Positions 40,529-58,770 of a stretch of DNA of 64,000 nucleotides are shown here, piece by piece; the first letter of the stretch is position 1, and each line of letters starts with the position of its first letter. The notes under the pieces were generated by a model. It searched no databases, was not told the origin of the DNA, and saw only the letters and a program-made list of their open reading frames with translations. The position numbers and the translations under genes were made by a program. This DNA is from a virus. Where the stretch lies: IMG/VR virus record IMGVR_UViG_3300034782_000062, positions 1-64,000 of that record; one strand, written 5' to 3'.

Positions 40529-40569
40529 GTCTTTTCTCCTCCCGTTTTGATTCAGCCCTTGCGGGCCTA

Positions 40570-40700
40570 GCGGGTGGTCGTCCCGCTGTCTTACCTGCTA
40601 CCCCTCTCCGCGGGGCCAAACACTCCGAAATAATGTTCAAGGCCTCGGGGAAGGCGGTCGGAGAAACCGCTTTTCGGGGTGCACGTCCCTATCCCCGAGA
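40570..40700 (-). other. Structured leader upstream of the putative MCP
   Basis: CTCGGGG/CCCCGAG closing stem with an inner GCGGT/ACCGC hairpin; GCGGG/CCCGC hairpin at 40570-40586. Confidence 0.45.
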
Positions 40701-40716
40701 CCATGATGACGATCAG

Positions 40717-44455: not shown

Positions 44456-44665
44456 CTATCCCTGACGGCAGCGCTGCAGGCGCAACTGTGCTGCTCGATG
44501 CTCCAGCGTCGCCAAATGCAACTCATGTTCTCGCAAACGCAATTCTTCTTCGTATGATGCACAAAGCGAAACAGCTCTAGCGGGCGGCACGGGGGCATGT
44601 GTTCTCACACGAGTAGGTGCTGCTGCACCTAGCCCACCCTGCACCCTCTGATACTCGTAAGACAT
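44456..44665 (-). CDS. Small MSYEY-GGLG leader protein
   Basis: AAGGAGGAG SD, ATG 44665; coiled-coil tail. Confidence 0.65.
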   Translation of the reverse strand: MSYEYQRVQGGLGAAAPTRVRTHAPVPPARAVSLCASYEEELRLREHELHLATLEHRAAQLRLQRCRQG

Positions 44666-44675
44666 GCTCTCCTCC

Positions 44676-45179
44676 TTAATCGATTGCGCCTTCTTCACGC
44701 AAACGTTCTTTCTGCTTGTAGCCGATGTAGAGTCCGACAGCGAAAGGAACGAGACCAGAGCCTCCAACGTAACGACCGCTGCCCTGACTCACACTTTCGA
44801 GGCCAGCAGAGACGATGGTCAGCACGATGCCCGCGCCAATACCAGCAAGACCGCCGTAGATGGCACCCTTCTTCGCCGCCTCCTTCTTGTATCCCTTCGC
44901 TCCGGTAATCGCTGCACCAGCAGCTCCGAGCGCGAACGGCATGGCAATTCCAATCACGACGATCCCAAGCAGGAGAAGAGCGAGTGCCCCGACGCCAGCT
45001 CCGATGGCAAGAGCCCTCGTTCCGTTGTCTGCAGGAGCTGGAACGCCCGTATCAACAAAAGCCTGATCTTCGAGCTGCAAACCAGGAACGGTAACTGCCA
45101 CCGGCTCAGCGCCGTTGCCATTTGTACCAAGTCCGAATCCCATCATCGACTCGTAAGTCGCTGGAGTGTACTCGTACAT
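44676..45179 (-). CDS. MYEY-GFGLGTNG leader multi-TM protein
   Basis: Leader plus 3-4 Gly/Ala-rich hydrophobic helices. Confidence 0.75.
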   Translation of the reverse strand: MYEYTPATYESMMGFGLGTNGNGAEPVAVTVPGLQLEDQAFVDTGVPAPADNGTRALAIGAGVGALALLLLGIVVIGIAMPFALGAAGAAITGAKGYKKEAAKKGAIYGGLAGIGAGIVLTIVSAGLESVSQGSGRYVGGSGLVPFAVGLYIGYKQKERLREEGAID

Positions 45180-45188
45180 CGTCCCCTC

Positions 45189-45548
45189 CTACGCCCTTGC
45201 GCGAGAAGCAAGACGCTGCGCTCGATCCAGCTCGTAGCTTGCCCTCAGCTCTCGCTCCCATTGCTTCTGTTGCCAAATCCCGACGACCGCACCTGCACCA
45301 GATGGAATAGCAAACGTTCGCAACCAGAACAGGACCCCACTCATCGGAACAATCGCCTGAGCGGCTTGTGCCAGCGCAACAGCAGCGACGCCGCCCTCAA
45401 TGACGGCGTACTTGCGGTCCATTGGAGAAACGATGGCAGCAGCAGCTCCGCCGAGCGCGAACTGCGCCAGGACAAGTCCGAAGTTCCCCATCGAGGTCTC
45501 CGGTTGCCCCATCCCAACAGCTTCTTCCCAATATCCCAGCATCGCCAA
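45189..45548 (-). CDS. Small three-TM protein (GMG near N-terminus)
   Basis: GGAG SD; hydrophobic helices. Confidence 0.7.
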   Translation of the reverse strand: MAMLGYWEEAVGMGQPETSMGNFGLVLAQFALGGAAAAIVSPMDRKYAVIEGGVAAVALAQAAQAIVPMSGVLFWLRTFAIPSGAGAVVGIWQQKQWERELRASYELDRAQRLASRARA

Positions 45549-45554
45549 TCTCCT

Positions 45555-45896
45555 TTATGACTTTTGAACGACGTCAAACACCTTGTGGGTGCCGCCCTTG
45601 AAGTTCTCCACCTGTTTTATGTCGCGCAGGTGCCCAATGATCCTAACGCGGTATGCCTTATGAGGACTTGTGGCGTAAGAGAATCGATAGCTTTGTGTCG
45701 AGCCCACGTAACAGTTGATATCGAGACGACCTACAACACGAGGCATAATCCCCGGATACCACTCGTCCAGCTCGGCCTGAAGCTCCCGGTTTGGAGCACG
45801 CTGCCCGCACGGTGCTACACGAAGAGTGACACTCCCACCAGACTGACCACCAGCAGCGCCACCCATCGAGCTTTTTGTTGTGTACTCGTAGCTCAT
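45555..45896 (-). CDS. MSYEY-leader soluble protein
   Basis: ATG 45896; SSMGG after the leader. Confidence 0.65.
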   Translation of the reverse strand: MSYEYTTKSSMGGAAGGQSGGSVTLRVAPCGQRAPNRELQAELDEWYPGIMPRVVGRLDINCYVGSTQSYRFSYATSPHKAYRVRIIGHLRDIKQVENFKGGTHKVFDVVQKS

Positions 45897-45897
45897 A

Positions 45898-46650
45898 TCA
45901 CCCCTCGATCCCATGTGAGGTGATGCGGAGGTTGGGGCCGTCTATGACACTCTCGACTCCTCCTCCGTCCAGGTTGATGATCGCCAAGAAAACTCGGTTC
46001 GGTCGCCGCGGATCAACCCACCCGTCAGGTGACGCGACCAAAACGTTCTTTCCCTTCATCGTACCCTCGGTGATCTCTCCAGTATCCAGGGGCCGAACGA
46101 CGAATCCAATACACTCTCCGATGAGCATCACCTCTTCTGGCCAACCGTAAGGAAGCTGCACTGGTTCGAGTGCGCCTCCCTCATCTGAAGGAACCATGAA
46201 CTTCACAACGTTTCGATCGTGATCGTGGTAGTACTCGACGGTCTCACCGCGCTGGTGCCATTTGTCACTCTCATAGAGCGTTCGCATTGCGACACCGAGT
46301 AAGCTCACCTGCTCAGGCCAGTCAACACCTTCCAGCTCGAATACCGAGTGCTCCTGCCCGTGAAAAGGGAAGACCGGTTCAAGTTTCTTGCGCGAGTGAA
46401 AGCGCTTGAACGTTTTCGCTGCAGCCTGCGCCGACCTTGCGTCGTTTCGCTCGATGGGCGAACCTGGGTTCGGACGCTGATGACGCAGCTCTCGCTGAAT
46501 CTTGTCATAGACCTCTTCAGCTCGCTCGCGAGTGACGGTGATCCCCTCACGAGCCTGCGTTGCGATGATCGTCCTGATCATCAGTTCGCGTCGTTCGATC
46601 GGGTCATTGAGAATATCGCGCACTTGGACGCGCCGCCTACTGCGAGCCAT
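45898..46650 (-). CDS. Hypothetical protein with an internal WPE.V.L.G repeat
   Basis: FKRFH, WPEQVSLLG / WPEEVMLIG, ends RITSHGIEG. Confidence 0.65.
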   Translation of the reverse strand: MARSRRRVQVRDILNDPIERRELMIRTIIATQAREGITVTRERAEEVYDKIQRELRHQRPNPGSPIERNDARSAQAAAKTFKRFHSRKKLEPVFPFHGQEHSVFELEGVDWPEQVSLLGVAMRTLYESDKWHQRGETVEYYHDHDRNVVKFMVPSDEGGALEPVQLPYGWPEEVMLIGECIGFVVRPLDTGEITEGTMKGKNVLVASPDGWVDPRRPNRVFLAIINLDGGGVESVIDGPNLRITSHGIEG

Positions 46651-46652
46651 GT

Positions 46653-47057
46653 CTACTCCATCTCCGACTCGAAGGTACCGAATCTTTCGTCCTGAGGACG
46701 ATTATCAAGTCTGGTTGTCAGCCAGAGAAGTGCCGTCGGAACGACGATCGCTAACCCAACGCACAGCCATGGATTGATCGGTGTCTGGGTGCTCACCTCG
46801 GAAACAATTTCACCCATTGCGAGAGAGCCTGTTCCAACATACTTCGCCCTTGGTGGAAGACTGTGGCCCGAGGTATCTGGGGCTTCGCCGAGAGCGCTTC
46901 CGAGCGCTGGCGAAAAAGGCGGCGGCGGGACTTCCTCACCGTACTTGGGACGATCAGGCTCTGGAGCCTGATAGTATTTGTACTTCCCGGTCGTCCAATC
47001 CCAAACGCTGTACATTCCATTGGTCGCGATCGCGCCGTAATTAACTCCGGGCCTCAC
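46653..47057 (-). CDS. C-terminally anchored membrane protein (YSVWD..YKYY)
   Basis: Pro-rich middle, terminal TM. Confidence 0.65.
   Translation of the reverse strand: MRPGVNYGAIATNGMYSVWDWTTGKYKYYQAPEPDRPKYGEEVPPPPFSPALGSALGEAPDTSGHSLPPRAKYVGTGSLAMGEIVSEVSTQTPINPWLCVGLAIVVPTALLWLTTRLDNRPQDERFGTFESEME
46688..46700. repeat. Palindromic motif (CGTCCTGAGGACG)
   Basis: Perfect match, near a gene junction. Confidence 0.8.
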
Positions 47058-47350
47058 AGCTCCTCCACCTCCTCCTGCTTAGACTTGTGCAAGAGGTACG
47101 CCCCAATGAGCACCATCGCCGGAACAGATGCCCACATCCATGGGCGCATCTGCTCGATCATCATTTGCGTCTGCAATTGCGCAACACGGGCTTGCTCTTC
47201 TTGTCGAATAGCCTGTTGCCTCTGTTGCTCCAGCCTCTCCCTCTCTCCCTCGGACACTGAACGCGATATGGCATAGCCAGCCCATCCCGTACCAACAACC
47301 AACGGAACGCCATACAACAGAGCAGGGACCCACCATGGATTTGGCTGCAT
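47054..47350 (-). CDS. Two-TM protein with a Gln-rich coiled linker
   Basis: Paralog of 47351-47623. Confidence 0.65.
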   Translation of the reverse strand: MQPNPWWVPALLYGVPLVVGTGWAGYAISRSVSEGERERLEQQRQQAIRQEEQARVAQLQTQMMIEQMRPWMWASVPAMVLIGAYLLHKSKQEEVEEL

Positions 47351-47623
47351 CTATCGCTCTCTCTTCCTTAGGATAAAATACATCCCCAGGATGGCTGTCG
47401 CTGGGATTGCGATCATCCCCATCGGAACGAGCAGCCCGTACATTGCTTGCGACTGAGCCGCCGCTGCACGTCGTCGCTGCTCCTCAATCTGCTGCTGCTG
47501 GTCCTGAACTTCCGTCGTTCCGTTCTGTTGAAACGCACCAAAGGCCATACCGGCAAAAATCAACGAACCACCGATGAGGATCGGATAGGCAGCAGCAGCA
47601 ATTGGTCCGAAGTTTCGCTCCAT
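47351..47623 (-). CDS. Two-TM protein with a Gln-rich coiled linker
   Basis: ATG 47623 (TGATG coupling). Confidence 0.65.
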   Translation of the reverse strand: MERNFGPIAAAAYPILIGGSLIFAGMAFGAFQQNGTTEVQDQQQQIEEQRRRAAAAQSQAMYGLLVPMGMIAIPATAILGMYFILRKRER

Positions 47624-48297
47624 CACGACCTCTTCTTGAACTTCCATGCGGCGTAAAGCATGAACATGGCCGCTGCAGAGGTCCCAATCACAAGAGCCCA
47701 TGGGAGCTGAATGCCAAGATCGAATCCACCTCCTGGTCCGGCCGGTACAAGAGTTCCGGCCATCCTCTGAGCATCAGCCGCAGAGAACCCCATCCGAAAG
47801 AGAGTCGCTTGATCCGGGGTCCCTGTCTGCGGAATACCACCGCGCGCTTGGGATGCCCGAATAGCCGCTGCGAATGACGTTGCTTCCCCAACACCATCAA
47901 TCGGACCCGGATCAATACCCATTGAGCAAAGACGCGATTGAATATCCCAAATGACCCGTGAACGAGACGTCGTCAGGCTGTTCCTGTCGACGCGATGGGA
48001 CTGACACGTCGCTACCGAAGGCTCTATCCGCCCACCAGCCTGAGTAGGACATGCCAGGAAAGGACGAGGCCAGTGGGGTGGACAGCACCACGTCGAACCA
48101 GCCACTCCCTCAACCGAACACGTCTGCCCTCTGGCAGAAGGAACGCATCCCCCCTCACGAGCACACGCCCCTGCATCTGCCGTATTCTCGAAGCATCGAG
48201 TGACACCCCCTCCAACAACTTCTGAGCAGGGGGGGTTACCAGAAATATCCGTCCAGCCGGGGCCGACGAGCCCGAGCCCTGTCGAGTACTCGTACAT
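47623..48297 (-). CDS. MYEY-GLG leader, six-Cys CCP domain, PG-binding domain, TM
   Basis: WCCPP; DIQSRLCSMGIDPGPIDG; TM followed by KFKKRS. Confidence 0.75.
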   Translation of the reverse strand: MYEYSTGLGLVGPGWTDISGNPPCSEVVGGGVTRCFENTADAGACAREGGCVPSARGQTCSVEGVAGSTWCCPPHWPRPFLACPTQAGGRIEPSVATCQSHRVDRNSLTTSRSRVIWDIQSRLCSMGIDPGPIDGVGEATSFAAAIRASQARGGIPQTGTPDQATLFRMGFSAADAQRMAGTLVPAGPGGGFDLGIQLPWALVIGTSAAAMFMLYAAWKFKKRS

Positions 48298-48950
48298 CAG
48301 CCCATCTCCTCTGAGAACAGCATGCGCTCTTCTCGCTTCCGGTCGAAGTAGCGCTTGCCGAGATAAGCCGCCGTCCCCAGGATGCCTACAGCAACCCAAA
48401 CCTTTGGATCGGACAGAATCTTTCCGATGCCAGTGATCGGCGTCGTCGTGATCCTCGCTGTCGGTGTCGATCCTTCAGGAGGAAGCTCTTTCGTCGGAGA
48501 CTGAACAGGCGGCTGCGTAGTCGTAGGAGGTTCCACCGTCGGAAGACCGGGAATCTCGGGCGGCAAAGGGAGCTGTGCCTCCTCCTCACGAATCTGAGCG
48601 GCCTCCGGAGTCTCGGGATCGGCCCGCGGTGTTCCACTCGGGCAGCAAAAGCAAAAACCGGGGTTACCAGAAGCAGTCTCACAGCGCTTCGGCTCATCTC
48701 CGGTGAGAAACGTCTGCATATTCTGAACGCAGCCGTAGAGGTTGGCGACGTTGAGGTCTGGAGGATAAACTTCACCAGCGTTCTGTGGATCCTCCATGAA
48801 GCAAACTTCGTCCGGAGGATACTGTCTTCCTACGTCATCCGTCGTACACATACACTGAGGACGACCAAAGAGCGGGGCCAAATCCCAACTGCTCATCACA
48901 GACCAGCCGAGAGCACCGAGACCGCCAGGTCTTCTGTTGTACTCGTACAT
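48297..48950 (-). CDS. MYEY-GGLGALG leader, CCP domain, Pro/Thr linker, TM
   Basis: FCCPSG; TM followed by KRYFDRKREE. Confidence 0.75.
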   Translation of the reverse strand: MYEYNRRPGGLGALGWSVMSSWDLAPLFGRPQCMCTTDDVGRQYPPDEVCFMEDPQNAGEVYPPDLNVANLYGCVQNMQTFLTGDEPKRCETASGNPGFCFCCPSGTPRADPETPEAAQIREEEAQLPLPPEIPGLPTVEPPTTTQPPVQSPTKELPPEGSTPTARITTTPITGIGKILSDPKVWVAVGILGTAAYLGKRYFDRKREERMLFSEEMG

Positions 48951-49402
48951 CAGATGTGCCCCTCTCTCTTCAAATACCGATACCCAAACCAGCCGCCGAC
49001 CCCGAGAGCCAACAACGCCACGACCGGACCAAACATCGAGGCAGATGCCACCTGCGGCAAAGCTGGAGGCTGAGGAGAAGTAGGCACTGGCTGAGGCTGC
49101 GGTTGCGGTTCTGGCTCTACCGGAGCTGGCTCGGCGGGCTGCACTGGGAAGTCTGGGAATCCAGGAGGACAGCACCAGACGGCACCAGCATTATTCTCCG
49201 CGGTGTTGCAAGGCCACCCAATTCGCTCACAAGCTCTGTCATAAGCGAACTGGTATTCATCCGGCTCCACGAAACAGTATTGATTCCCCCCTGGAAACTC
49301 CAAGCACTGCTTCTGTGTCCTCTCTCCGCTGAAGATCTGACCGAACGTTGGAGGTTCATTGACCTGCGACCAGCCCATCCCTCTGGGGTTGTATTCGTAC
49401 AT
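48950..49402 (-). CDS. MYEY-GMG leader, CCP domain, Pro linker, TM
   Basis: WCCPPG. Confidence 0.8.
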   Translation of the reverse strand: MYEYNPRGMGWSQVNEPPTFGQIFSGERTQKQCLEFPGGNQYCFVEPDEYQFAYDRACERIGWPCNTAENNAGAVWCCPPGFPDFPVQPAEPAPVEPEPQPQPQPVPTSPQPPALPQVASASMFGPVVALLALGVGGWFGYRYLKREGHI

Positions 49403-49405
49403 GGA

Positions 49406-49843
49406 TCAGAACTCCTCTTCGAGTTCCAGCTCTTCTCGCTTCGCCTCGTACTCCTTGTAGCCAAAAAAGGCGATGCCAGCGAGACCAAGTGCTCCAAGCC
49501 AGAACCACCACCGGCTCGATGACTGCTGAAACCATCGACCGATACCCGGTGGCGCAGGCGGCGCAGGCGGCGTCTGACCCGGTTCCAGAGGAGGCGACCC
49601 CGGTGGACGCGGCCAACCAGGAGGACAGCACCAGACGAGACCCGGGTTTCCAGCCGGTGAGGTGCTGCAAGGCTGATTGATCGGAGCGCACCCCTGAGCA
49701 CGAGCGAAATCTTGCTCGGGCGGCTGACCATCAACGGTCGTCGTTCGAAAACAGCGCTGCTCGTAGCCCGGATAGTCAGGACACATCGGATGACCGACGA
49801 CGTCCGACCAACCGAGGCCGTACATCTGCCTAAAACCGCCCAT
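49406..49843 (-). CDS. MYGLG leader, CCP domain, Pro linker, TM
   Basis: WCCPPGWPRP; acidic tail. Confidence 0.8.
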   Translation of the reverse strand: MGGFRQMYGLGWSDVVGHPMCPDYPGYEQRCFRTTTVDGQPPEQDFARAQGCAPINQPCSTSPAGNPGLVWCCPPGWPRPPGSPPLEPGQTPPAPPAPPGIGRWFQQSSSRWWFWLGALGLAGIAFFGYKEYEAKREELELEEEF

Positions 49844-50762
49844 AGCGCTCCTCCTCGAACTCGAACTCTTCTTCCTTCTTTCGAGTCATGTAGGCACCAA
49901 GGACGATGATCCCCAGAAGACCAAAGCCTGCAGCAGCCCACGGGACCCAGGATGGAAGTCCGGTTGTCGGAATCGAAGGCCCCATCGACGCGGTTTGAAC
50001 TCGCGGCGGTTGCTGCGCGACGCTGGGAGGCACAGGTAGCGGAGAAAACGATGGCTTCACTACGGTAGCGACACCCGTCGGGAACGTCGTTGGTGTAGTC
50101 GTAACGGGAGGAGGGCCGGATGGAACGGTCATCCTCTGAGCGACAGTCGGGAACTGCTGAACGACCTGTTGCCAGCTCTGGCGAGCAGCAAGGCATCGGA
50201 CGCCGGCCTCGGTCTCATCGCCCCATCGACCATCGACCCCATAGCGGGGGAGAGTACATCCAGCAGCAATGACTGCGTTCTGCACTGCCTCTACCTGAGG
50301 GTCGGGCGGCAAAACAGTGCGAGCAATCCTTCTTCCAGCGGCAGCAACATTCTCCGCAAATCTCGTCAGAAGACCCTCTGCCTCTACGATTTCTTCGGCC
50401 GTGGGCGCCGGAAGTCGATTCATTTCTTCAGGGCTCAGAGCTTCTGCAAAGGTCAAGTAGTAATCACAGTCACCGGGGATATTAGGAGGACTCATCACGT
50501 TGCAATATGTTGCAACTTCAAAATTGCTGCATGGGGCGCCGCCTGAATCTACTCGACACGCCTCTGCTGCCGTAAATAGTCGTCGACATTCCGTAAAGTC
50601 AGTGCCGATCCTGTCAGGGGCGAGGTTAAAACAGACGTCTCTGGCTTGTCCCCGAGAGAGAACACCTGTCTGAACGTCGCGAAGGAGATCGGCTCCATCA
50701 CGGCCTTCGCCGTTTGTGCCCAAAGCGCCAAGCCCACCAGGTGTTCTTCGGTATTCGTACAT
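49830..50762 (-). CDS. MYEY-GGLGALGTNG leader, Cys-rich helical domain, PG-binding domain, TM
   Basis: AVQNAVIAAGCTLPRYGVDGRWGDETEAGVRCL. Confidence 0.8.
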   Translation of the reverse strand: MYEYRRTPGGLGALGTNGEGRDGADLLRDVQTGVLSRGQARDVCFNLAPDRIGTDFTECRRLFTAAEACRVDSGGAPCSNFEVATYCNVMSPPNIPGDCDYYLTFAEALSPEEMNRLPAPTAEEIVEAEGLLTRFAENVAAAGRRIARTVLPPDPQVEAVQNAVIAAGCTLPRYGVDGRWGDETEAGVRCLAARQSWQQVVQQFPTVAQRMTVPSGPPPVTTTPTTFPTGVATVVKPSFSPLPVPPSVAQQPPRVQTASMGPSIPTTGLPSWVPWAAAGFGLLGIIVLGAYMTRKKEEEFEFEEERYGRF

Positions 50763-50780
50763 TTTAAATGTTTAACCTCT

Positions 50781-51464
50781 TTAATAGGCGCCTGTCGGTG
50801 CCTCGACCCAGCGTGCCTCTCTCTCTTCAATGTCCACGTCGCCGACACCTCGGCCGCTCATCAGGTACTGCATCAAGATGAAAAGACCGATACCACCAAC
50901 ACCCACTGCCAAAATGGTCCAAGTTGCGTTCCACTCAGAACGGGCCGGTGTAGGCTGAATCGGCTGCGAGGGTTGCGTTGCGACTGGCGCTGCTGCCGCT
51001 ACAGGCCGTGGACGAAATTCCTCCGGCACCTCCACCAAAGAAAGCACAACAGGATATCGCCCAACGATACTTCCCCATCCGACAGCCTGCGCCAAACAGT
51101 TGATCCCGGAACGCGTTTCGGACCCGAAGAGACCATCTGCGCCGTAGGTCGGCAGCCTACAGCCTGCTCGAAGAATAGCCATCTGAAGCTCGCGCACCTT
51201 GTCACGTCGAGGGCAGCAGTAGTACGCACCAGCGTCTGTGGCGTCTGGCTGAGCGCAATAGGGCTCACCACCAACCTGCACTCCAACACAAGCCCGACTG
51301 TCTGCTCGACCCTCCTGCCCGGAAGGAACGCAGGCGACCTCGCCATCAGCCATCGGGAAGTCGGCACTTCCACGGCATGATTGGCCGATCCAGCTCCATG
51401 CCCCATTGGAACCGAGTGCCCCAAGGCTCATCAAAGGCCGACGTGTTCTTGTCCGCATATACAT
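50781..51464 (-). CDS. LGALGSNG leader, CCP domain, PG-binding domain, TM
   Basis: YYCCP; ELQMAILRAGC...GADGLFGSETRSG. Confidence 0.8.
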   Translation of the reverse strand: MYMRTRTRRPLMSLGALGSNGAWSWIGQSCRGSADFPMADGEVACVPSGQEGRADSRACVGVQVGGEPYCAQPDATDAGAYYCCPRRDKVRELQMAILRAGCRLPTYGADGLFGSETRSGINCLAQAVGWGSIVGRYPVVLSLVEVPEEFRPRPVAAAAPVATQPSQPIQPTPARSEWNATWTILAVGVGGIGLFILMQYLMSGRGVGDVDIEEREARWVEAPTGAY

Positions 51465-51472
51465 GTCACACC

Positions 51473-51811
51473 TCACACAACGAAGGGAACGAGCGAGAAC
51501 GCTCTACCAATACCGTCCGCATAGGCGAACGTCGGCCCAATCGCCGGCCATGGGGCCAGCATATTCGGGTACATCGGCTCACTTCTAAGCTTGTTGTAAA
51601 GAGCAAAGCCGACGGCACCAACCGCCATCGCAAGAGCGACCTTTACCCAAAAATTGAACCGAGTCGCCTGATCCGTCACCATAGACGCCGTCTGCGTGAC
51701 CTGGTCTCCGTTCGTTCCCATTCCCTGAGGAAGGAGAGGTCGAGCAGGATTGTAGGGAACGAGGGTGCTCAGAGGAGAGAGCTGTCGACCCTTCGTCGTG
51801 TAGATGTACAT
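51473..51811 (-). CDS. MYIY...GMGTNG leader small TM protein
   Basis: TGATG coupling at 51809-51813. Confidence 0.65.
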   Translation of the reverse strand: MYIYTTKGRQLSPLSTLVPYNPARPLLPQGMGTNGDQVTQTASMVTDQATRFNFWVKVALAMAVGAVGFALYNKLRSEPMYPNMLAPWPAIGPTFAYADGIGRAFSLVPFVV

Positions 51812-52293
51812 CAGTATCCCTCCAGCTCCATCTCCTCCTGGCGATTCTTCGCCCATCGCCAGACGAGATATCCACCGATACCCATGACACCCACCGTCAC
51901 TAGGACGGTTCCGATGCCCATGCCGATACCGGCGCCCGCTGCGGTTGCAGCAGCAGGGATCATGGACGCCGCCACCTGCTGTCCATCTCTGGGTGCAGGA
52001 ATCGCTGCTGCTCGGGCCAGCTCAGCGTCGAGGACTCCAGGCGGGCAGCAGTAGAAAACTCCCTGGTTACCCTCATCGGTATAGCAGTGGTGGTTTCCTT
52101 GGAAGCCAACTGTTCTACATCCGATGCGCTGCAAGTATTGAATCTCGGCGGAGCGACCACAGATGAGGTCACTGCTCGGGTCCATTGGGTTCGCGGCTGG
52201 ACCTGAGCACGTTTGCTGAGAGAAACGATGTTCCTGACCTGGAACGGTAAAACCACCGGTCCAGCCAAGGCCTTGACGGGCTCTTGTATACAT
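51811..52293 (-). CDS. MY..GLG leader, CCP domain, TM
   Basis: FYCCPPG; ATG 52293. Confidence 0.75.
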   Translation of the reverse strand: MYTRARQGLGWTGGFTVPGQEHRFSQQTCSGPAANPMDPSSDLICGRSAEIQYLQRIGCRTVGFQGNHHCYTDEGNQGVFYCCPPGVLDAELARAAAIPAPRDGQQVAASMIPAAATAAGAGIGMGIGTVLVTVGVMGIGGYLVWRWAKNRQEEMELEGY

Positions 52294-52712
52294 CAGAATT
52301 GACCTCTTCTTTCTCGCTCCTCTTCCATTTTTGCTGTGACATAGGAGCCGATCATGATGATGCCGACGAGACCGACACCGGCAGCGGCCCATGGAAGCCA
52401 TGCTGGAGTCTGACCGTTTCCTGTGACTCGGGGAACGACAGAGGCGACCTGCTGCGCCACTCCCTGTTGTTGGGGAATTGTCATCCTCTGAGCGACCCAG
52501 GGCCAGCTCTGGAGAACGAAATCCCAACCGCGGCGCTCCGCGAGACAACGAGTACCCGCCTCGGTCTCTGAGCCCCATCGGCTGTCGCGGCCAAACCGCG
52601 GAAGAGAACAGCCGTTTTCGAGTATGGCACTCTGAATGGAACCAACCTGCTCCTCAGGCTCTGTTCCCAGGCCCATCATGCCCCGACGACTTCTGGTGGT
52701 GTACTCGTACAT
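52293..52712 (-). CDS. MYEY-MMGLG leader, PG-binding domain, TM
   Basis: SIQSAILENGCSLPRFGRDSRWGSETEAGTRCL. Confidence 0.8.
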   Translation of the reverse strand: MYEYTTRSRRGMMGLGTEPEEQVGSIQSAILENGCSLPRFGRDSRWGSETEAGTRCLAERRGWDFVLQSWPWVAQRMTIPQQQGVAQQVASVVPRVTGNGQTPAWLPWAAAGVGLVGIIMIGSYVTAKMEEERERRGQF

Positions 52713-52721
52713 GACGACCTC

Positions 52722-53519
52722 CTAATATCCGAGCGCGGCCAGCTCAGCCTCTTCCAGCTCGGCTTCTTCTTCCTCGCCCCTCTTGTAGAGGTAGTATCCG
52801 CCGGCTGCGAGAAGACCAACGCCTCCGAGAATGGCGAGCCAGCCCCACCAAGGCATTCCGCCAGGAACGATGCCAGCCTGCTGAATAGCAGGAGCACCCG
52901 GGGCGCCTGTCGTGGTGGTTGCTGCAGCTCCTCCGCTTGCATAGCGAACGCCGCCCTGTTCAGGGGTCTTCGACCCGGTCGCACCGGGGTCAAAGATCAT
53001 TCCGGATGGACGAGCCGCTCCGGAAGGATCGGCCATCAGTGTGCTGAGGAACGGGAAGCGCCCGGCCACGTTGGTCCAGCTCGTCTGGCCCACTGCGCAT
53101 TCGACACCACTGCGCGTGTTCGGCCCCCAGACACCATCAGCACCCGTTGAGCCGACAGAACAGCCTTGCTGGACAAGCCAGTTCTGCATCTGACGAATCT
53201 GATCACGGCTCACTGCCTGCTGGACGATCGTGCTGGGCTCTCCGGCACCAGGGCGCCCTGGCGGACAGCACCAGGTGTTTCCAGAAGCTCCCGATGATGT
53301 TCGGCAAGCCCCGGTGCCACCTCCCTGCTCAGGATACGTGACCTGGCACCCCTGGCTCACCATGAAGCCCTGTTCGCCGGTAGTAGCACAGGCAATCGTG
53401 CCACCTCCCTCACAAGGGATGCTCCGAGCGATTTCCCGACTCATCGGGATTTCCCAGTTGTACGACCACCCGAGCGCTCCCATGCCCAAACCACCGGGCT
53501 TCCTTACATATTCGTACAT
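52722..53519 (-). CDS. MYEY-GGLGMGALG leader, CCP domain, PG-binding domain, TM
   Basis: WCCPPGRP; QMQNWLVQQGC...GADGVWGPNT. Confidence 0.8.
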   Translation of the reverse strand: MYEYVRKPGGLGMGALGWSYNWEIPMSREIARSIPCEGGGTIACATTGEQGFMVSQGCQVTYPEQGGGTGACRTSSGASGNTWCCPPGRPGAGEPSTIVQQAVSRDQIRQMQNWLVQQGCSVGSTGADGVWGPNTRSGVECAVGQTSWTNVAGRFPFLSTLMADPSGAARPSGMIFDPGATGSKTPEQGGVRYASGGAAATTTTGAPGAPAIQQAGIVPGGMPWWGWLAILGGVGLLAAGGYYLYKRGEEEEAELEEAELAALGY

Positions 53520-53541
53520 TTTTAGCTCCTACTCTTTGCCC

Positions 53542-54405
53542 TTAGTATCCGAGCGCGGCCAGCTCAGACTCTTCACGCAGCACGTCTTCTTCCTCTCCCT
53601 TTCGGTAAAGGTAAAGACCACCCAGCGCGAGAGCGCCGACGCCTCCGAGCAGGCCCATCCAGCCCCACCAAGGCATGCCACCCGCGACCATTCCGGCCTG
53701 AGTGACCGGTGTTGTCCCCGGTGTGGTTCCAGTGCTTGCCACACGACCACCAGGGATGATGGTCTGGCCCGCAGCAACCTGCTCCGGTGTCTTTGTTCCC
53801 ACAACAGGAGGCTGAAAAACGAAGTCTGCAGGACGCGCCTGTCCGGTTGGAGTCTGCCTCATCGTGGCGACGAAGGGGAAGTTCGCAGCGATCACAGTCG
53901 CGTTCCCCTGAGCCTCAGCACACCGAACGGCCGTCGCTGTATCAGGACCCCAGATTCCATCGATGCCGTGTGTGCCGACAGAACAGTTGATGGACTCCAG
54001 CCACTGCTGAAGCTCACGAATGTCAGCACGGGACGCTCCAGCCTGAGTCACAGCCGCGCCCTCACCCGGCGTTGCACGGGGGCGACCAGGAGGACAACAC
54101 CAGACCAAGCCAGCGTTTGCCTCCGTCGTTGGACCTGTACCCGTGAAGCAAATTCGAGTGGAACCGCCCAGTTCGGTGTCGAGGTTCATGGGCCTGCAGC
54201 CTTCATTGGCCATGAAGGTGCTTTCTGCTGTTCGACCACAGGTCACGGTCCCTGAGCCATCCGGCGTTTGACACGAAGGGCCACGGAATGTCTGACCAAA
54301 TGAGGTAAAGGTGGGCATCCAGCCCAAACCGCCCGGGACGGGAACGTATTCGTGGCTGTTCTTCGAAGCGCCCAAACCGCCCGGCCTTCTTACGTACTCG
54401 TACAT
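53542..54405 (-). CDS. Duplicated leader (MYEY..GGLG / HEY..GGLG), CCP domain, PG-binding domain, TM
   Basis: Close paralog of 52722-53519 with the same ELAALGY C-terminus. Confidence 0.8.
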   Translation of the reverse strand: MYEYVRRPGGLGASKNSHEYVPVPGGLGWMPTFTSFGQTFRGPSCQTPDGSGTVTCGRTAESTFMANEGCRPMNLDTELGGSTRICFTGTGPTTEANAGLVWCCPPGRPRATPGEGAAVTQAGASRADIRELQQWLESINCSVGTHGIDGIWGPDTATAVRCAEAQGNATVIAANFPFVATMRQTPTGQARPADFVFQPPVVGTKTPEQVAAGQTIIPGGRVASTGTTPGTTPVTQAGMVAGGMPWWGWMGLLGGVGALALGGLYLYRKGEEEDVLREESELAALGY

Positions 54406-54409
54406 GGTT

Positions 54410-54676
54410 TCACTCTCCTCTTCTCTTCGTGAGGTAGTAAGAAAGGCCCAGCGCAGCCACCGCGCCGAGGCCAAACCAGAACAGACCCGACGACGTAAAT
54501 GGGCCTGATACATTCGTCGTTGCTTGCACAGGTGGCTGAGAAGGGATCGCCTGGCTCTGAGCCTGAATCTGCTGCGCCCCTTGCTGGACCTGTGATGCAG
54601 TTTCCATGGCCTGTGCCACGATGAAGTCAGTGATCTGGTCGATGTTCTCCGCCGTCTGTTGGAAGTTGTTCGACAT
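54410..54676 (-). CDS. Small Gln-rich C-terminally anchored membrane protein
   Basis: ATG 54676; TM LFWFGLGAVAALGL. Confidence 0.65.
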   Translation of the reverse strand: MSNNFQQTAENIDQITDFIVAQAMETASQVQQGAQQIQAQSQAIPSQPPVQATTNVSGPFTSSGLFWFGLGAVAALGLSYYLTKRRGE

Positions 54677-54678
54677 GA

Positions 54679-55050
54679 TCAATCCTTCGTCAGAAAAACT
54701 GTTATCGCCAAGACCGACGTCACAATGCTCGCACCTATGGCGATCTTCATGAGGCGCTGTGCACGTTCCAGCTCGGCTCGCGTTTCCTGAGCCTCCTGCA
54801 CCAGCTCCTGAGGCCGCTGCTGAAGCCAGCTCATCCACTCGCTGACGTTGAGCCCTGAGGACTCAGTACCCCCATCAGTCCCGAGCGCCGAGGTCACAGC
54901 ATACTGACGCTCACCCATGTGCCTCGGGTAGACCCACATCCGCCTACCAGAAACTGGGTTGATGAGCAGGTAGTAATCGCCAGGCTTCACGTGCGGCCTG
55001 ACAAAATACATCGGGACGCTGACTGGTTTTCGTGCAAGCTTCGATGCCAT
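54679..55050 (-). CDS. C-terminally anchored membrane protein
   Basis: ALGTDG; terminal TM. Start 55050 or 55011. Confidence 0.6.
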   Translation of the reverse strand: MASKLARKPVSVPMYFVRPHVKPGDYYLLINPVSGRRMWVYPRHMGERQYAVTSALGTDGGTESSGLNVSEWMSWLQQRPQELVQEAQETRAELERAQRLMKIAIGASIVTSVLAITVFLTKD

Positions 55051-55059
55051 CGGCTGCTC

Positions 55060-55527
55060 CTACTCTTCTTCTCGATACTTCTTGATGAGCATCTGAATAC
55101 CAAGAGCTGCAGCCGCCCCCGCACCCAGCCAGAAGAGCTTGGCGCCGAACGTTGTTCCCTGCTGAGCAGGCGCCTCCGTGGTGCCCATGCTCGGCCCCTC
55201 CAGGACGATGCCGTAGGAGGACGACCCCGGATAGAGCGGACGACCCGGACGTCTGAGCATATTCCACTGCATGTCCGGTGCAGCAACCTCGTAGTCATAT
55301 CGAGCATAGTCATCGAAGAAAATGCCAGTGTTGCTCGGCGGTTCAGTGTCGCCGCTGAAGATCCCGTTGTCTTCGCCCTCGTAGCCGAAGATTCCGCTTC
55401 CGATCACCTTCGGGAGTCGGCCAGTCGGCGCGGCACCGTTGATGACATTGACGCCCTTGAATCCAAGGCGCTGGCGGTACCTTTCCTCACGGGGCGGAGC
55501 TTTTACGATGCTCTTTGGTGGTGCCAT
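55060..55527 (-). CDS. C-terminally anchored membrane protein with three GIF motifs
   Basis: SGIFG, NGIFS, TGIFF; TM LFWLGAGAAAALGI. Confidence 0.65.
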   Translation of the reverse strand: MAPPKSIVKAPPREERYRQRLGFKGVNVINGAAPTGRLPKVIGSGIFGYEGEDNGIFSGDTEPPSNTGIFFDDYARYDYEVAAPDMQWNMLRRPGRPLYPGSSSYGIVLEGPSMGTTEAPAQQGTTFGAKLFWLGAGAAAALGIQMLIKKYREEE

Positions 55528-55535
55528 TGTTCCCT

Positions 55536-56069
55536 CTAATCCTTTTTCCGAGTCAGCAGCCAAATGCCAACGATCCCGAACGTCAGCACCAAGCCCCCTA
55601 TCACGATGTAGGGGACATATGACCTCTGTGGCTGAACCACGAGGGGAGCCGCAGTCGATGTTGGAGAAGGCGTTTCTTCTGACGCCGCCTCTCCCTCATC
55701 CGCTGAAGCTGTCGTTGACTGAGCTGGTGCAGGAGTTGTCGTCGTTGGAGCGCCCTTTCCGCTGGGCGCTGGAGCTGCCCCAGTCGGCGTTGCGCCGCTT
55801 GGCTGCTTTCCACCGGGCGCTCCAGTTGAAGACCCCGTAACCTCAGTCGCCGTATTGCTCGCAAACTGCTGAGCGAGCCCGGAGAACAGATTAGCGATCC
55901 CCGAGTAGATGCTTGTATCGCCCGAAGACTCCCTACCACCCTGAAGCTCTGGCGGCATCGGACGAAGACCCATTCCAGCGGACACCAGATCCTCTGGCGT
56001 CGCGAAATCCATGTCTGGGTTATCGATGTCGCCGTTCGTCCCCAGGCCAGTCATATACTCGTAAGACAT
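55536..56069 (-). CDS. MSYEY-MTGLGTNG leader, Thr/Pro/Ala stalk, TM
   Basis: Shares its TM with 56070-56732. Confidence 0.75.
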   Translation of the reverse strand: MSYEYMTGLGTNGDIDNPDMDFATPEDLVSAGMGLRPMPPELQGGRESSGDTSIYSGIANLFSGLAQQFASNTATEVTGSSTGAPGGKQPSGATPTGAAPAPSGKGAPTTTTPAPAQSTTASADEGEAASEETPSPTSTAAPLVVQPQRSYVPYIVIGGLVLTFGIVGIWLLTRKKD

Positions 56070-56732
56070 CTACTTTTTCCTCACGAGCAACCAAATACCG
56101 ACACCAGCGAAACCGAAGACAAGCAGCCCTCCGACGATGTAAGGAGCGATCGTTGACCCGACAGAAGGCATAGGAGCTGTTACAGCAGCGGGCGAAGGAC
56201 CAGGAGGAGGAAGGGTTTCCGTGGCTGCTGCAGCACCCGCGCCGGGAACCATCACCTGACCTGTGAGGTTGGCCGCGGTTTCCATGGCAACGCCCTGTGC
56301 CTCTTGATTTGCCTGACCCCCGATACCAAGTTTCGTTGCGACCGTCTCAAACATCGCACCGACGTCGGTAGGCCACCACGTCTGCTTTTCTGCTGTTGGG
56401 GCCGGTTCACCTGCTGCTGTTGCCGGAGCACCAGTAGTAGGGCACGAAGCCCCTACCAAGCGCTCATATTGTGAAAAAGCTGGGTCGCTGGAAAATCGAG
56501 AACGAAATCCATCGAGAACGCGACGCGCCTCATCACATCGATTCGCACGAGCAAGAGCCTGTGCTCGACGTAGAGCGTAGTTCTGAGGAGTTGCCGGGTC
56601 TTCGCGCTCCGCTTGTTCCAGAAGACGAATTGCTTCTGAGTAGTTCCCTGAATCGTAAGCGGTGCGTGCCTGCGCAGAGAGTCTTTCCGCCTCCTCGACG
56701 GTCCCCATCCCGGTCATATATTCGTAAGTCAT
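56070..56732 (-). CDS. MTYEY-MTGMG leader, TPR domain, stalk, TM
   Basis: ARTAYDSGNYSEAIRLLEQA...AQALARANRCDEARRVL. Confidence 0.75.
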   Translation of the reverse strand: MTYEYMTGMGTVEEAERLSAQARTAYDSGNYSEAIRLLEQAEREDPATPQNYALRRAQALARANRCDEARRVLDGFRSRFSSDPAFSQYERLVGASCPTTGAPATAAGEPAPTAEKQTWWPTDVGAMFETVATKLGIGGQANQEAQGVAMETAANLTGQVMVPGAGAAAATETLPPPGPSPAAVTAPMPSVGSTIAPYIVGGLLVFGFAGVGIWLLVRKK

Positions 56733-56740
56733 GATTCTAC

Positions 56741-57370
56741 CTAGTCTTTCTTCCTTATGACCAGCCAAACAAGGAAGGTTCCGAGGCCGATCGCCGTCGA
56801 GGCCAGTGTGATATGGGTCTGGTATCGCTCTATCCAGGTCTGTTCTTCGGCAGCTTGCTGGCCGGCAGAGTCCGGAGGAGTCTCCTCAATAGGGAGAACC
56901 TCGTTCTCGGCGGCTGCGCCTGTACGAAGAGCCGCTTCCTGTGCATACGTCGCAAAGCCCTGGGCAGTGGGCTTGTTTGCGCCTGTGCCACCTGGCATAG
57001 GGGCCGCTGGAACCTGTTGACCTGTAGGCATACCAATGGCTCCCTTGACCCAATCGACGATACCCCCTGTATCCTGAGATGGGGCAGCCCCTGGCTGAGC
57101 CGCTACGGTCGACTCTTCTTCTTCTCTGACAGCTTCGCCGAGGATAAGAGTAGGAGTGGATGGACAGCAGTAATGCTGACACGCCTCGTTCAGCCTTCCG
57201 ACCTGACCAGTGTCACTGGGTATCTCAACACAGCTCATTCGACTGGCGGTGGATGCCTCTCTCGGCCTGAAACAACGTTTCTGACCCGTCACAGAGCCCT
57301 GCGTACAAGCTCCTCTTGGGTCCGAAAATCCGAGAGAACCCAAGCCAGGACCGTAGTAATGATAGGACAT
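56741..57370 (-). CDS. MSYHY-GLGSLG leader, CCP domain, stalk, TM
   Basis: HYCCPS. Confidence 0.75.
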   Translation of the reverse strand: MSYHYYGPGLGSLGFSDPRGACTQGSVTGQKRCFRPREASTASRMSCVEIPSDTGQVGRLNEACQHYCCPSTPTLILGEAVREEEESTVAAQPGAAPSQDTGGIVDWVKGAIGMPTGQQVPAAPMPGGTGANKPTAQGFATYAQEAALRTGAAAENEVLPIEETPPDSAGQQAAEEQTWIERYQTHITLASTAIGLGTFLVWLVIRKKD

Positions 57371-57378
57371 CGTTTACC

Positions 57379-57870
57379 TTAATCCTTCATCTTGGAGACG
57401 AGCCACACGCCGCCGATGACAACCCCTGTCACTCCGACTCCAACGACAGCCCAGACCCACATGGGAGTAGGCCGACTCCCTCCAAATGTTCCACCGACGC
57501 GGGCTTGAGCCTCGCGAGCGAACGCAGCCGCTTGTTCACGGCTGATCTCTTCAGCAAGTTCCCGCTCCTGTGCGGAATACTCACTCGCGATGCCTCTACG
57601 AGCCTCGTTGATAGCATCACGCTCAGCGTTCGCTCTTTCATCGAAATACTGTTGCCTTGCCATGTCGTCGAGCATCGACGACATTCCGGATTCGCGCCCC
57701 TCAGCGTAGGCACCCTGCTGGTAACGAATCTGGTCGATGGTGTTGATCGCACCAAAGATCGCACCGACCGTACTTCCAACAGCGCCAGCGGCTGCACTGG
57801 CGTAGTCTCCGGCCGTCGTTCCCATGCCGACATCGCCCCCATCAGGGGCACCTACGAAGACGAAGCTCAT
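57379..57870 (-). CDS. GMG leader, coiled coil, TM
   Basis: DVGMGTT; amphipathic helix; TM. Confidence 0.7.
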   Translation of the reverse strand: MSFVFVGAPDGGDVGMGTTAGDYASAAAGAVGSTVGAIFGAINTIDQIRYQQGAYAEGRESGMSSMLDDMARQQYFDERANAERDAINEARRGIASEYSAQERELAEEISREQAAAFAREAQARVGGTFGGSRPTPMWVWAVVGVGVTGVVIGGVWLVSKMKD

Positions 57871-57879
57871 CGAAGCCGC

Positions 57880-58770
57880 CTACTCCTCTTCGTCTTTCTT
57901 CTTGGACATGTACCAGAACACGCCACCGACGCCGCCTGCGAGAACGAGCGCGAGAAAAATCCAAACGACCGGTGAGGTACCCTGCTGAGTGACGATCGGA
58001 GCCGCTGTCGTTGACGGCGCAGACGACACAGCAGCTTCCGTCTCACGAAGAGCCCGAAGCTCTTCTGCACGCTGCGACAGCTCCTCAAGACGAAGCTCAT
58101 GCTCCTGCTGACGGGCGAGCTGCTCGGTCTGGAACGCCATGTCACGAGCCTCAGACTCAGCTTCCATTTGCTCGCGACGAAGCTGAGCTTCCAGCTCCAT
58201 CTCGGCCTCCGCTCGCTGATGACCCGTGACCGTTGTGGCGATACCGACTCCCAGCTCAGAGAGCGGAGCCAGGATAGAGCCGATGCCTTCCATGATTCCG
58301 CCAGCTCGTGATCCGTTGGTACCCATCCCCATGTCGCCGTCGTTGCCCATGCCGCCGCCATACAATCCGCTCGGGCCGATCGAAGGTCCATAGGTGACGT
58401 AAGTGCCAGGCTGCACCCTTCGAGCAGCTCGGCCACCAACATTCACCACTGGAGAACCAGCGGCTCTTTGCGCTGCTTCACCGTTCATGGCGAAGCGGGC
58501 GCCATTCTCCATGTCGTAGTAGTACATCTGCCCACCTTTATCTCCATTGCCCCTTCGAATTGGAGCTGATTCCGCACCAAGAGTCGCAGCCTGTTGAAAC
58601 CTCGGCCGCTGAGGCACAACGCGGCGAACGGGGCGGCGGGGTGCCTGAACATGCGGAGCAGCACTCACATCTTCTTCGACGGTGCCGACGTATTCAACAT
58701 CGTCATCGTTTCCATTTCCGTTTGCTCCGTAGCTTGTCATGTCTTCATCAAGAGCATCCCACTCGCTCAT
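57880..58770 (-). CDS. Membrane protein with internal GMGN/GMGTNG, coiled coil and TM
   Basis: First gene after the transglutaminase-like enzyme; tail KKKDEEE. Confidence 0.7.
   Translation of the reverse strand: MSEWDALDEDMTSYGANGNGNDDDVEYVGTVEEDVSAAPHVQAPRRPVRRVVPQRPRFQQAATLGAESAPIRRGNGDKGGQMYYYDMENGARFAMNGEAAQRAAGSPVVNVGGRAARRVQPGTYVTYGPSIGPSGLYGGGMGNDGDMGMGTNGSRAGGIMEGIGSILAPLSELGVGIATTVTGHQRAEAEMELEAQLRREQMEAESEARDMAFQTEQLARQQEHELRLEELSQRAEELRALRETEAAVSSAPSTTAAPIVTQQGTSPVVWIFLALVLAGGVGGVFWYMSKKKDEEE

Follow-up and report, generated by a model that had tools for sequence, protein, structure and literature searches.

What is the six-cysteine module that a large virus repeats in nine neighbouring genes, and on which side of a membrane would it act? 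The question is raised by an IMG/VR virus record of 182,770 bp (completeness 95% according to CheckV), the first 64 kb of which, hereafter the window, was analysed; the credible genes of this window all lie on the minus strand. Nine of them encode a short cysteine-rich module that ends in [WYF]CCP and is referred to here as WCCP. Judged by its sequence, WCCP is a real, new and lineage-restricted domain of disulfide type, which would form the head of C-terminally anchored phage envelope proteins and is frequently accompanied by a peptidoglycan-binding domain.

The WCCP module and its family

In a six-frame scan of the whole genome, the motif [WYFH]CCP preceded by four cysteines was found in the nine genes alone (Table 1), the remaining xCCP matches being two isolated ones in spurious frames of 45–46 amino acids (aa). 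A profile built from the nine modules and run against the same genome gave exactly nine matches, with E values from 1e-15 to 1e-22. The nine copies of a six-cysteine mini-domain that a preliminary description of this DNA had reported are thus borne out, and by motif and profile alike there are no more than nine. The start codons could be fixed because the genes share MYEY-type N-termini and are preceded by GGAG-like sites 6–10 nucleotides (nt) upstream; seven of the nine proteins have an MYEY-like N-terminus, the exceptions being g50781 (MYMR) and g51811 (MYTR).

Cysteine makes up 10–14% of the module, compared with 1.6% in the open reading frames (ORFs) of the genome. The cysteine spacings in the seven copies with six cysteines are 7–15, 13–23, 6–16, 3–16 and 0 residues, and the two other copies hold seven (g47623) and eight (g48297) cysteines in the module. 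The core from C1 to CCP spans 47–72 residues, with a strand carrying the G-W motif about 15–30 residues further upstream. CC closes the module in each of the nine copies and in the intact family members; in a few of these sequences, A, R or S takes the place of the proline behind it. Among the nine copies, the invariant columns are C1, C2, C3, the CC pair and the proline after it; in 42 family sequences, C4, the glycine of G[LM]GW and the glycine four residues before CC are additionally conserved at 90% or more, and the last of these upholds the earlier remark that the aromatic residue is often preceded by N.G or A.G. Positions conserved besides the cysteines include the G[LM]GW strand, the F behind C2, the G ahead of C3, the T behind C4 and the pattern G-N-x-G..W..PPG. 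The linker that follows contains 12% P, 11.5% A, 10% G and 7.6% T. The most divergent copy is g48297, which sits on a long branch (1.22) of the family tree, and in g56741 the fourth cysteine is shifted to three residues before CC (CQHYCCP), as it is in its orthologs (L006:4628-5233, an L014 gene and P0033).

AlphaFold was run with family alignments on g48950 residues 1–84 and on full-length g52722. The former model has a mean predicted local distance difference test (pLDDT) score of 64, with 72–80 in the core; the latter has a mean of 81.8, with residues 21–190 mostly above 90. Both present the same order of elements, namely a G-W-S/T strand, a C2 strand, a helix of 8–9 residues ending before C3, a C4 strand, and a strand with the aromatic residue and CC, so that strands precede the helix and a hairpin comes after it, in keeping with the earlier expectation that the paralogs have a common fold. 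Because of this shared order, the module is taken to begin at G[LM]GW, not at C1, and to measure about 65–95 residues. Beyond the module, the g52722 model shows a bundle of four short helices (residues 105–162), a short structured piece, a disordered linker and a long C-terminal helix. On these models, the WCCP module is a previously undescribed, predicted alpha/beta domain of about 65–95 residues.

Most proteins of the window match neither Pfam nor PHROG families, the exceptions being glycosyltransferases, a pyruvyl/methyltransferase and a protein with multiple helix-turn-helix (HTH) domains; for the nine WCCP proteins together with 30 neighbours, Pfam and PHROGs returned solely PG_binding_1, glycosyltransferases, HTH domains and methyltransferases. 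When 55 family members were searched against Pfam at E ≤ 1, no cysteine-rich family appeared except two chance-level Thionin rows (E 0.07), and a PDB sequence search with a 42-sequence profile found no chain at E ≤ 10. The g48950 head had no usable match in the ESM Atlas; its model reached a best E of 1.0 in Foldseek against the PDB and a best Z of 3.7 (root-mean-square deviation 3.2, 50 aligned residues) in VIA-align against 48,161 chains; none of the listed matches is a defensin or a clip domain, and the best are generic beta-alpha-beta-beta pieces of GNAT enzymes. For the full-length g52722 model, the best E in Foldseek against the PDB was 1.8, the VIA-align match list is taken up by the C-terminal helix and is uninformative on the head, and BFVD gave weak matches, through the PG_binding part, to phage peptidoglycan hydrolases with binding domains. 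A literature search for WCCP together with phage produced irrelevant matches only.

A kinship with beta-defensin-like and clip-like folds had been suggested earlier. WCCP indeed shares with these six cysteines of which the last two form a vicinal CC, a glycine and an aromatic residue before that pair, a small size and, presumably, three disulfides. Such folds are units of 36–45 residues, with a spacing of roughly C-x6-C-x4-C-x9-C-x6-CC and disulfide connectivity C1–C5, C2–C4 and C3–C6. The WCCP spacings given above, against roughly 6/4/9/6, and the helix predicted between C2 and C3 argue against the comparison; the extra N-terminal G-W strand and the context of a phage membrane protein are further differences from both folds. 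With no Pfam, PDB-sequence or fold match in its favour in the searches described above, which fall short of proof that the fold is new, the kinship gains no support, and the likeness of six cysteines ending in CC looks like a convergence of pattern rather than a sign of membership.

Outside this genome, 1.84 billion representative proteins were searched exhaustively with a profile, which recovered 42 clusters, about 37 of them with a clean architecture, three behind an N-terminal extension and two cut or frameshifted. This architecture runs from MYEY..G[LM]GW through the module, an optional PG_binding_1 domain and a Pro/Ala/Gly/Thr linker to a C-terminal hydrophobic helix, K/R residues and often an acidic tail. 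The g51811 type is the best-conserved subfamily, with 46 clusters at 90% identity that include contigs of 252, 270 and 290 kb. In the related contigs examined, L003 (12.4 kb), L006 (37.6 kb), L014 (292 kb) and L016 (27.8 kb), genes in the region of the cassette that surrounds the WCCP genes (Table 1) are arranged in the order seen here, and each contig has, within the part fetched, 5–6 WCCP genes in the same subtype order. A pattern-seeded scan with the g51811 subfamily profile confirmed no relative in the genomes of 185,579 prokaryote species (one each) or in IMG/VR, and neither did an IMG/VR scan seeded with three single proteins. The domain family is lineage-restricted, having so far been found only in environmental phages of 180–290 kb.

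Table 1. Positions in the window of the nine WCCP genes, their cassette and the neighbouring genes discussed in the text (TM, transmembrane).
Gene or region	Position (strand)	Length	Features
g47623	47623..48297 (-)	224 aa	WCCP module ~48073-48264 with seven Cys, three more Cys after module; PG_binding_1 at aa 119-166 (47800-47943), 24.8 bits against a cut-off of 23; C-terminal TM helix, tail KFKKRS
g48297	48297..48950 (-)	217 aa	Eight-Cys module (CxC...CFCCP) ending ~48633; long Pro/Thr/Glu linker; weak C-terminal hydrophobic helix
g48950	48950..49402 (-)	150 aa	Six-Cys module 49160-49381; Pro-rich linker; C-terminal TM helix; AlphaFold model m048fc78071ac
g49406	49406..49825 or 49843 (-)	139-145 aa	Probable start MYGLGW at 49825; module 49616-49819; Pro-rich linker, TM helix, acidic tail with terminal F
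g50781	50781..51464 (-)	227 aa	Module 51204-51425 (YYCCPRR); PG_binding-like segment with Cys pair ~51075-51194 after module (by alignment alone, no Pfam match); TM helix; ortholog P0002/L001
g51811	51811..52293 (-)	160 aa	Module 52036-52272; Ala/Gly-rich linker; TM helix; tail ELEGY
g52722	52722..53519 (-)	265 aa	Module end 53256; PG_binding_1-like helical domain with Cys pair at aa 105-162 (53034-53207), 16.8 bits, below cut-off; linker; TM helix from ~aa 224; AlphaFold model m47bcdd581a69
g53542	53542..54405 (-)	287 aa	Paralog of g52722; duplicated GGLG motif; module 54085-54330; PG_binding_1-like segment at aa 126-161 (53923-54030), PG_binding_1 E 3.5e-4, 21.1 bits, below cut-off, PG_binding_3 E 4.7e-3; TM helix
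g56741	56741..57370 (-)	209 aa	Module 57155-57346; long acidic/Ala-rich linker; TM helix; tail RKKD
Surrounding cassette	44456..58527 (-)		~17-27 small genes with common M(S/T)YEY..G[LM]G start; synteny with L003, L006, L014 and L016
g49830	49830-50762		Second six-Cys module type
215-aa protein	39881-40528	215 aa
1171-aa protein	40717-44232	1171 aa
304-aa protein	62250-63164	304 aa

Cysteine counts, proposed membrane topology and proposed role

An even number of cysteines (6, 8, 10, 12 or 14) is found in 56 of 58 family members and in all nine window genes; of the two exceptions, P0035 has a cut N-terminus and P0009 a doubtful extended start. The other ORFs of the genome comprise 70 with even and 89 with odd counts. 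Leader-bearing proteins of the cassette, whether or not they contain WCCP, all have 0, 2, 6, 8 or 10 cysteines, and the neighbours outside the cassette have 1, 1, 1, 3 and 9, among others; to judge from these counts, the whole cassette, not the WCCP genes alone, looks adapted to an oxidising compartment. Extra cysteines in the family are always paired, the PG_binding-like domains bear a conserved cysteine pair of their own, and no natural variant lacking a cysteine pair occurs in the family. The modules contain no CxxC, CxxH or histidine motifs, and CxC is present in g48297 alone. Moreover, paralogs depart from one another in cysteine spacing by as much as 13 residues, and C4 has moved by about 10 positions in one whole subfamily. 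The even counts, the paired extras, the lack of CxxC and histidine motifs and the shifted C4 are therefore the signature of structural disulfides rather than of metal sites.

Of 55 members, 18 have a PG_binding_1 domain after the module (Pfam, E ≤ 1; best E 6.7e-10), the match in g47623 lying above the gathering cut-off, and precomputed PF01471 matches exist on the L003 and L006 orthologs. PF01471 is a domain of phage endolysins and bacterial wall enzymes, which the domain directly after WCCP resembles in being predicted as a short helical bundle; unlike in endolysins, it is here the neighbour of another module, has a conserved cysteine pair and belongs to a C-terminally anchored protein without a catalytic domain. 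Eight of the nine copies have a single hydrophobic helix at a distance of 4–25 residues from the C-terminus; in g48297, this helix is weak. In the 12 residues after this anchor, K/R residues are more numerous than before it in 38 of 55 members, equally numerous in 9 and fewer in 8; by the positive-inside rule, this excess would therefore place the tail in the cytoplasm and the head outside, beside the wall. The disulfide-stabilised module on a Pro/Thr stalk that had been suggested earlier thus gains indirect support from the even cysteine counts, the PG_binding_1 domain, the C-terminal anchor with its K/R residues and the element order shared by the models, whereas the diversifying character attributed to it does not. 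The family, its architecture and conservation, the cysteine statistics, the adjoining PG_binding_1 domain and the predicted secondary structure are direct observations of this analysis; that disulfides form, that the N-terminus lies outside, that the head binds a partner and when in infection it does so is what we infer from them.

Tentatively, and at slightly less than an even chance, we propose that WCCP is the disulfide-locked, membrane-distal head of conserved paralogous late proteins in huge (180–290 kb) phages, where it would serve as a binding unit on the wall side. A single helix at the extreme C-terminus would hold each protein in the membrane, and a stalk rich in Pro, Ala, Gly and Thr would carry the head, with PG_binding_1 between head and stalk in about a third of the members. 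The head would then stand on the oxidising, cell-wall side, and the K/R residues and the acidic tail would remain in the cytoplasm. It may be speculated that the head, as long as it is without disulfides, is unfolded in the cytoplasm and hence export-competent; outside, it would fold and be locked by three intramolecular disulfides through the Dsb system of the host. Once folded, it would act as a binding unit of fixed specificity, connecting the membrane anchor with the wall or with further proteins of the envelope or the cassette. The 5–9 paralogs, each with its own conserved partner, would together constitute a membrane-to-wall assembly late in infection, which could be used in release, in envelope remodelling, or as membrane carried into the virion. 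A bolder extension, which we regard as doubtful, would have the WCCP proteins and the other MYEY-leader proteins either follow a leader-dependent, signal-peptide-free export or belong to the lipid membrane of a giant non-tailed virus, and their disulfide-locked, multi-paralog membrane–wall assembly would be of a kind undescribed for phages.

Spanins are late phage proteins that span the envelope of the host and have Pro-rich periplasmic parts and functionally important, Dsb-dependent disulfides; the u-spanin gp11 of T1 also has a C-terminal TM domain (PMC6139136). Like T1 gp11 and the Rz/Rz1 spanins, the WCCP proteins have a C-terminal TM helix and a Pro-rich segment and would, in the predicted topology, extend from the inner membrane towards the wall. 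However, u- and o-spanins have an N-terminal lipoprotein signal and i-spanins an N-terminal TM helix, both of which are missing from the WCCP proteins; nor do these have a lipobox cysteine, their first cysteine being located at residue 21–45, inside the folded module. Spanin disulfides, unlike those predicted for WCCP, are few and intermolecular, spanin genes number one or two per phage as opposed to 5–9 WCCP paralogs in a cassette of ~17–27 genes, and there is no sequence similarity between the two. The WCCP proteins are not spanins; the spanin class is their closest working analogy.

Several observations weigh against the proposed wall-side head. The N-termini lack a signal peptide and any hydrophobic segment (over the first 50 residues, the maximum 15-mer hydropathy averages 0.38), and 76–224 residues would have to cross the membrane ahead of the C-terminal anchor; we know of no route that exports such a length ahead of a C-terminal anchor without a signal peptide. 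A conserved neighbour of 909 aa was considered as a translocase and rejected for want of a TM helix, and no translocase candidate was found. The disulfides are themselves predicted from cysteine statistics, and the genome encodes no DsbA, thioredoxin or Erv1/ALR, so that the host would have to supply the oxidation. The extended forms P0007 and P0017 possess an N-terminal helix with K/R residues behind it, an arrangement that by the charge rule would put the heads in the cytoplasm; these forms may be read-through artefacts joining two genes as one, because AAGGAG lies 7 nt before an internal ATG, and on account of this site they were set aside as proof of topology. Finally, the position of the genes in the late or structural region is equally compatible with a role inside the virion.

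In such a role, the WCCP proteins would be virion components, belonging either to the internal membrane of a tailless giant virus of PRD1 or PM2 type or to a set of leader-targeted internal head proteins ejected at entry; during entry, the WCCP head and PG_binding_1 would then have the wall as their target, and disulfide formation could follow release from the cell. We regard this as possible, though on balance unlikely. The cassette belongs to the late region and has large conserved genes on one side and three small, beta-rich genes, candidates for capsid proteins, on the other. PRD1 and PM2, phages with an internal membrane, have many small late membrane proteins clustered beside their capsid genes, a situation that the cassette recalls, as it does that of large DNA viruses. 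Disulfides are also found in the heads of virion membrane proteins of poxvirus-like viruses; unlike these viruses, the present phage encodes no Erv1-type oxidase, and no sequence similarity links its proteins to those of either group of viruses. At E ≤ 1, none of TerL_ATPase, Terminase_6N, Terminase_6C and the HK97 Phage_capsid family is matched anywhere in the 183-kb genome, which favours the virion reading, but an FtsK-type (FtsK_SpoIIIE) packaging ATPase is likewise unmatched at E ≤ 1, and the jelly-roll capsid is a putative one. With terminase, HK97 and FtsK matches all missing, the membrane-containing virion and the ejected internal head proteins therefore both keep their place as explanations. 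For the 215-aa protein, the nearest Pfam-bearing clusters of the ESM Atlas are PM2 P2_N/P2_C at a score of 0.77, which is at chance level, and the Atlas labels the relatives of this protein Uroviricota, which speaks against the virion reading.

The second form of the virion reading draws on the N-terminal leader, which is shared by otherwise unrelated cassette proteins and recalls the capsid-targeting sequence of the internal proteins of phage T4. Against it, hydrophobic C-terminal anchors would be unexpected on soluble internal head proteins. The tails offer another point in favour of the virion reading: 12 of the 58 family members end in Y or F after an acidic run, and this could be a docking motif. 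A Y or F ending after an acidic tail may also dock a cytoplasmic partner. Within the cassette, a C-terminal Y or F was observed in seven proteins (g49406, g49830, g50781, g51811, g52293, g52722 and g53542), six of which have acidic tails (for example ..LELEEEF, ..ELAALGY, ..MELEGY).

The neighbouring 304-aa protein had been considered as a head maturation protease on the strength of a PHROG match (E 0.0044). This candidate, which would have favoured a role in the virion, was rejected, as a profile of 12 homologs found no PDB protease match, and the PHROG match is probably spurious. These homologs have a conserved helical core and a long acidic tail, and by its sequence the protein looks more like a scaffold protein.

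Conservation of the paralogs and the weaker alternatives

The preliminary description had presented the nine copies as hypervariable, with loops that differ completely. Paralog identity at non-cysteine positions is 17–45% (mean 32%), and over the module, paralogs are 25–50% identical, compared with 38–75% for orthologs from other phage contigs; the g49406 module, for example, is 69% identical to its ortholog L006:9033-9449, and g47623 is 93% identical to its ortholog P0001/L002. A tree of 58 members places most paralogs of the window beside proteins from other contigs and away from their neighbours in the genome; g48297 stands alone as an orphan, and the sole companion of g50781 is P0002, its near-identical ortholog from another strain. 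The tree was computed from 88 columns, and 9 of its 55 inner branches are strongly supported and 31 unresolved. Because this support is weak, the grouping of orthologs leans also on sequence identity and on the shared order of genes. Of the five defined subfamilies, three (the g51811, g49406 and g56741 types) show little or no variation in loop length; in the g51811 type, the loops measure 14–15, 13, 10 and 11 residues in nine phages. Loop lengths vary by up to 6–7 residues in the g52722/g53542 and g47623 types. In view of this paralog identity, the conserved non-cysteine positions and the near-fixed loop lengths, the copies do not deserve the description of hypervariable.

The ratio of nonsynonymous to synonymous substitution rates (dN/dS, omega) was estimated by the Nei–Gojobori method against a close strain represented by the Logan contigs L001 and L002, at a protein identity of 89–93% and dS of 0.4–1.6. 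Omega of the module is 0.05 in g47623 and 0.022 in g51811, and for g50781, where dS is saturated, dN amounts to 0.044. The remainder of these genes gives 0.05–0.07, which the module values do not exceed, and two neighbouring cassette genes without WCCP give higher ones (0.10 and 0.23). The modules are under strong purifying selection. Together, the syntenic orthologs, the loop lengths and the low omega therefore identify the paralogs as old, individually constrained genes.

These results bear directly on the earlier proposal of a diversifying binding scaffold for receptor recognition, decoys or anti-defence, in which the loops would evolve fast and the cysteine frame would be kept. The low module identity of the paralogs within the genome and loops that differ by up to 13 residues would suit such a scaffold, as would the C3–C4 loop, where three of the five subfamilies reach their lowest conservation (mean pairwise identities of 0.15, 0.18 and 0.24 in the g49406, g47623 and g52722/g53542 types, respectively) and a fourth, the g56741 type, is also low (0.31, the segment running to CC in this case); in the g51811 type, the loop reaches 0.64 and is not the least conserved segment. 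In addition, four of the six module substitutions between g48950 and P0003 fall in the C1–C2 loop. However, omega or dN is low in each of the three comparable modules, most paralogs have an ortholog at the same position of the gene order in other phages, the loop lengths of three subfamilies are fixed or nearly so, and no repeat or mutagenic-retroelement signature was noticed, though no search was aimed at one. The hypervariable, diversifying reading is thus largely refuted by the available data, and we give the scaffold very little credence. The C3–C4 loop may set the specificity of each paralog.

The least probable account, to which we assign hardly any weight, regards the WCCP proteins as tail-anchored N-in proteins with cytoplasmic heads, whose six cysteines would bind a metal or an iron–sulfur (Fe-S) cluster: the missing signal peptide is what such proteins would show, and the forms P0007 and P0017 with two TM helices favour it by the charge rule, but zinc ribbons, Zn2Cys6 and Fe-S sites have closely spaced, fixed ligand pairs, as opposed to WCCP modules with neither CxxC, CxxH nor histidine motifs, with spacings that vary by up to 13 residues and with one cysteine shifted by about 10 in a subfamily; besides, the extra cysteines are always paired, cytoplasmic neighbours have odd counts, a peptidoglycan-binding domain would have no target in the cytoplasm, and a K/R cluster follows the anchor.

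The cassette, its relatives and the significance of the module

The WCCP genes are a subset of the cassette, most proteins of which bear a C-terminal TM helix. A second type of six-cysteine module, without the CC pair and unmatched by the WCCP profile, was observed in the cassette gene g49830, where it is followed by a PG_binding-like domain with a cysteine pair. In two relatives (P0007 and P0017; also L015:1187-2095), a similar cysteine-rich module stands behind an N-terminal TM helix, in frame with the next WCCP gene. Next to the cassette, the window from 40001 to 44000 is marked by a GC content of up to 64.5% and an AT skew down to -0.38 over the gene for the 1171-aa protein, which has no cysteine at all and one strong hydrophobic segment near residue 788.

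Relatives of this phage, namely L014 (ENA ERZ25039545, a contig of 291,722 bp) and the contigs of P0079, P0085 and P0093, reach 252–292 kb and keep the cassette together with its flanking genes, which include a divergently transcribed AAA ATPase of 568–588 aa just upstream of the cassette. The contig L016 (JGI 3300041086, 27.8 kb; protein P0068), in which five WCCP genes and the same order of genes recur, forms part of an NCBI deposit, a metagenome-assembled genome of Planctomycetota. This deposit is only a lead to the host, or else a binning error; the host may be a member of Planctomycetota.

WCCP represents a new disulfide-rich domain family, of which each genome fragment examined keeps 5–9 conserved paralogs. 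The modules are conserved machine parts and not the surface of an arms race, which changes the choice of experiments that are worthwhile. The best sequence evidence for a site of action of the cassette heads outside the cytoplasm comes from the cysteine statistics together with the neighbouring peptidoglycan-binding domain, and it sharpens the question of how C-terminally anchored proteins without a signal peptide would get there. If the proposed topology is true, it would be a pointer either to an unknown route of export or to a membrane structure of the phages' own making.

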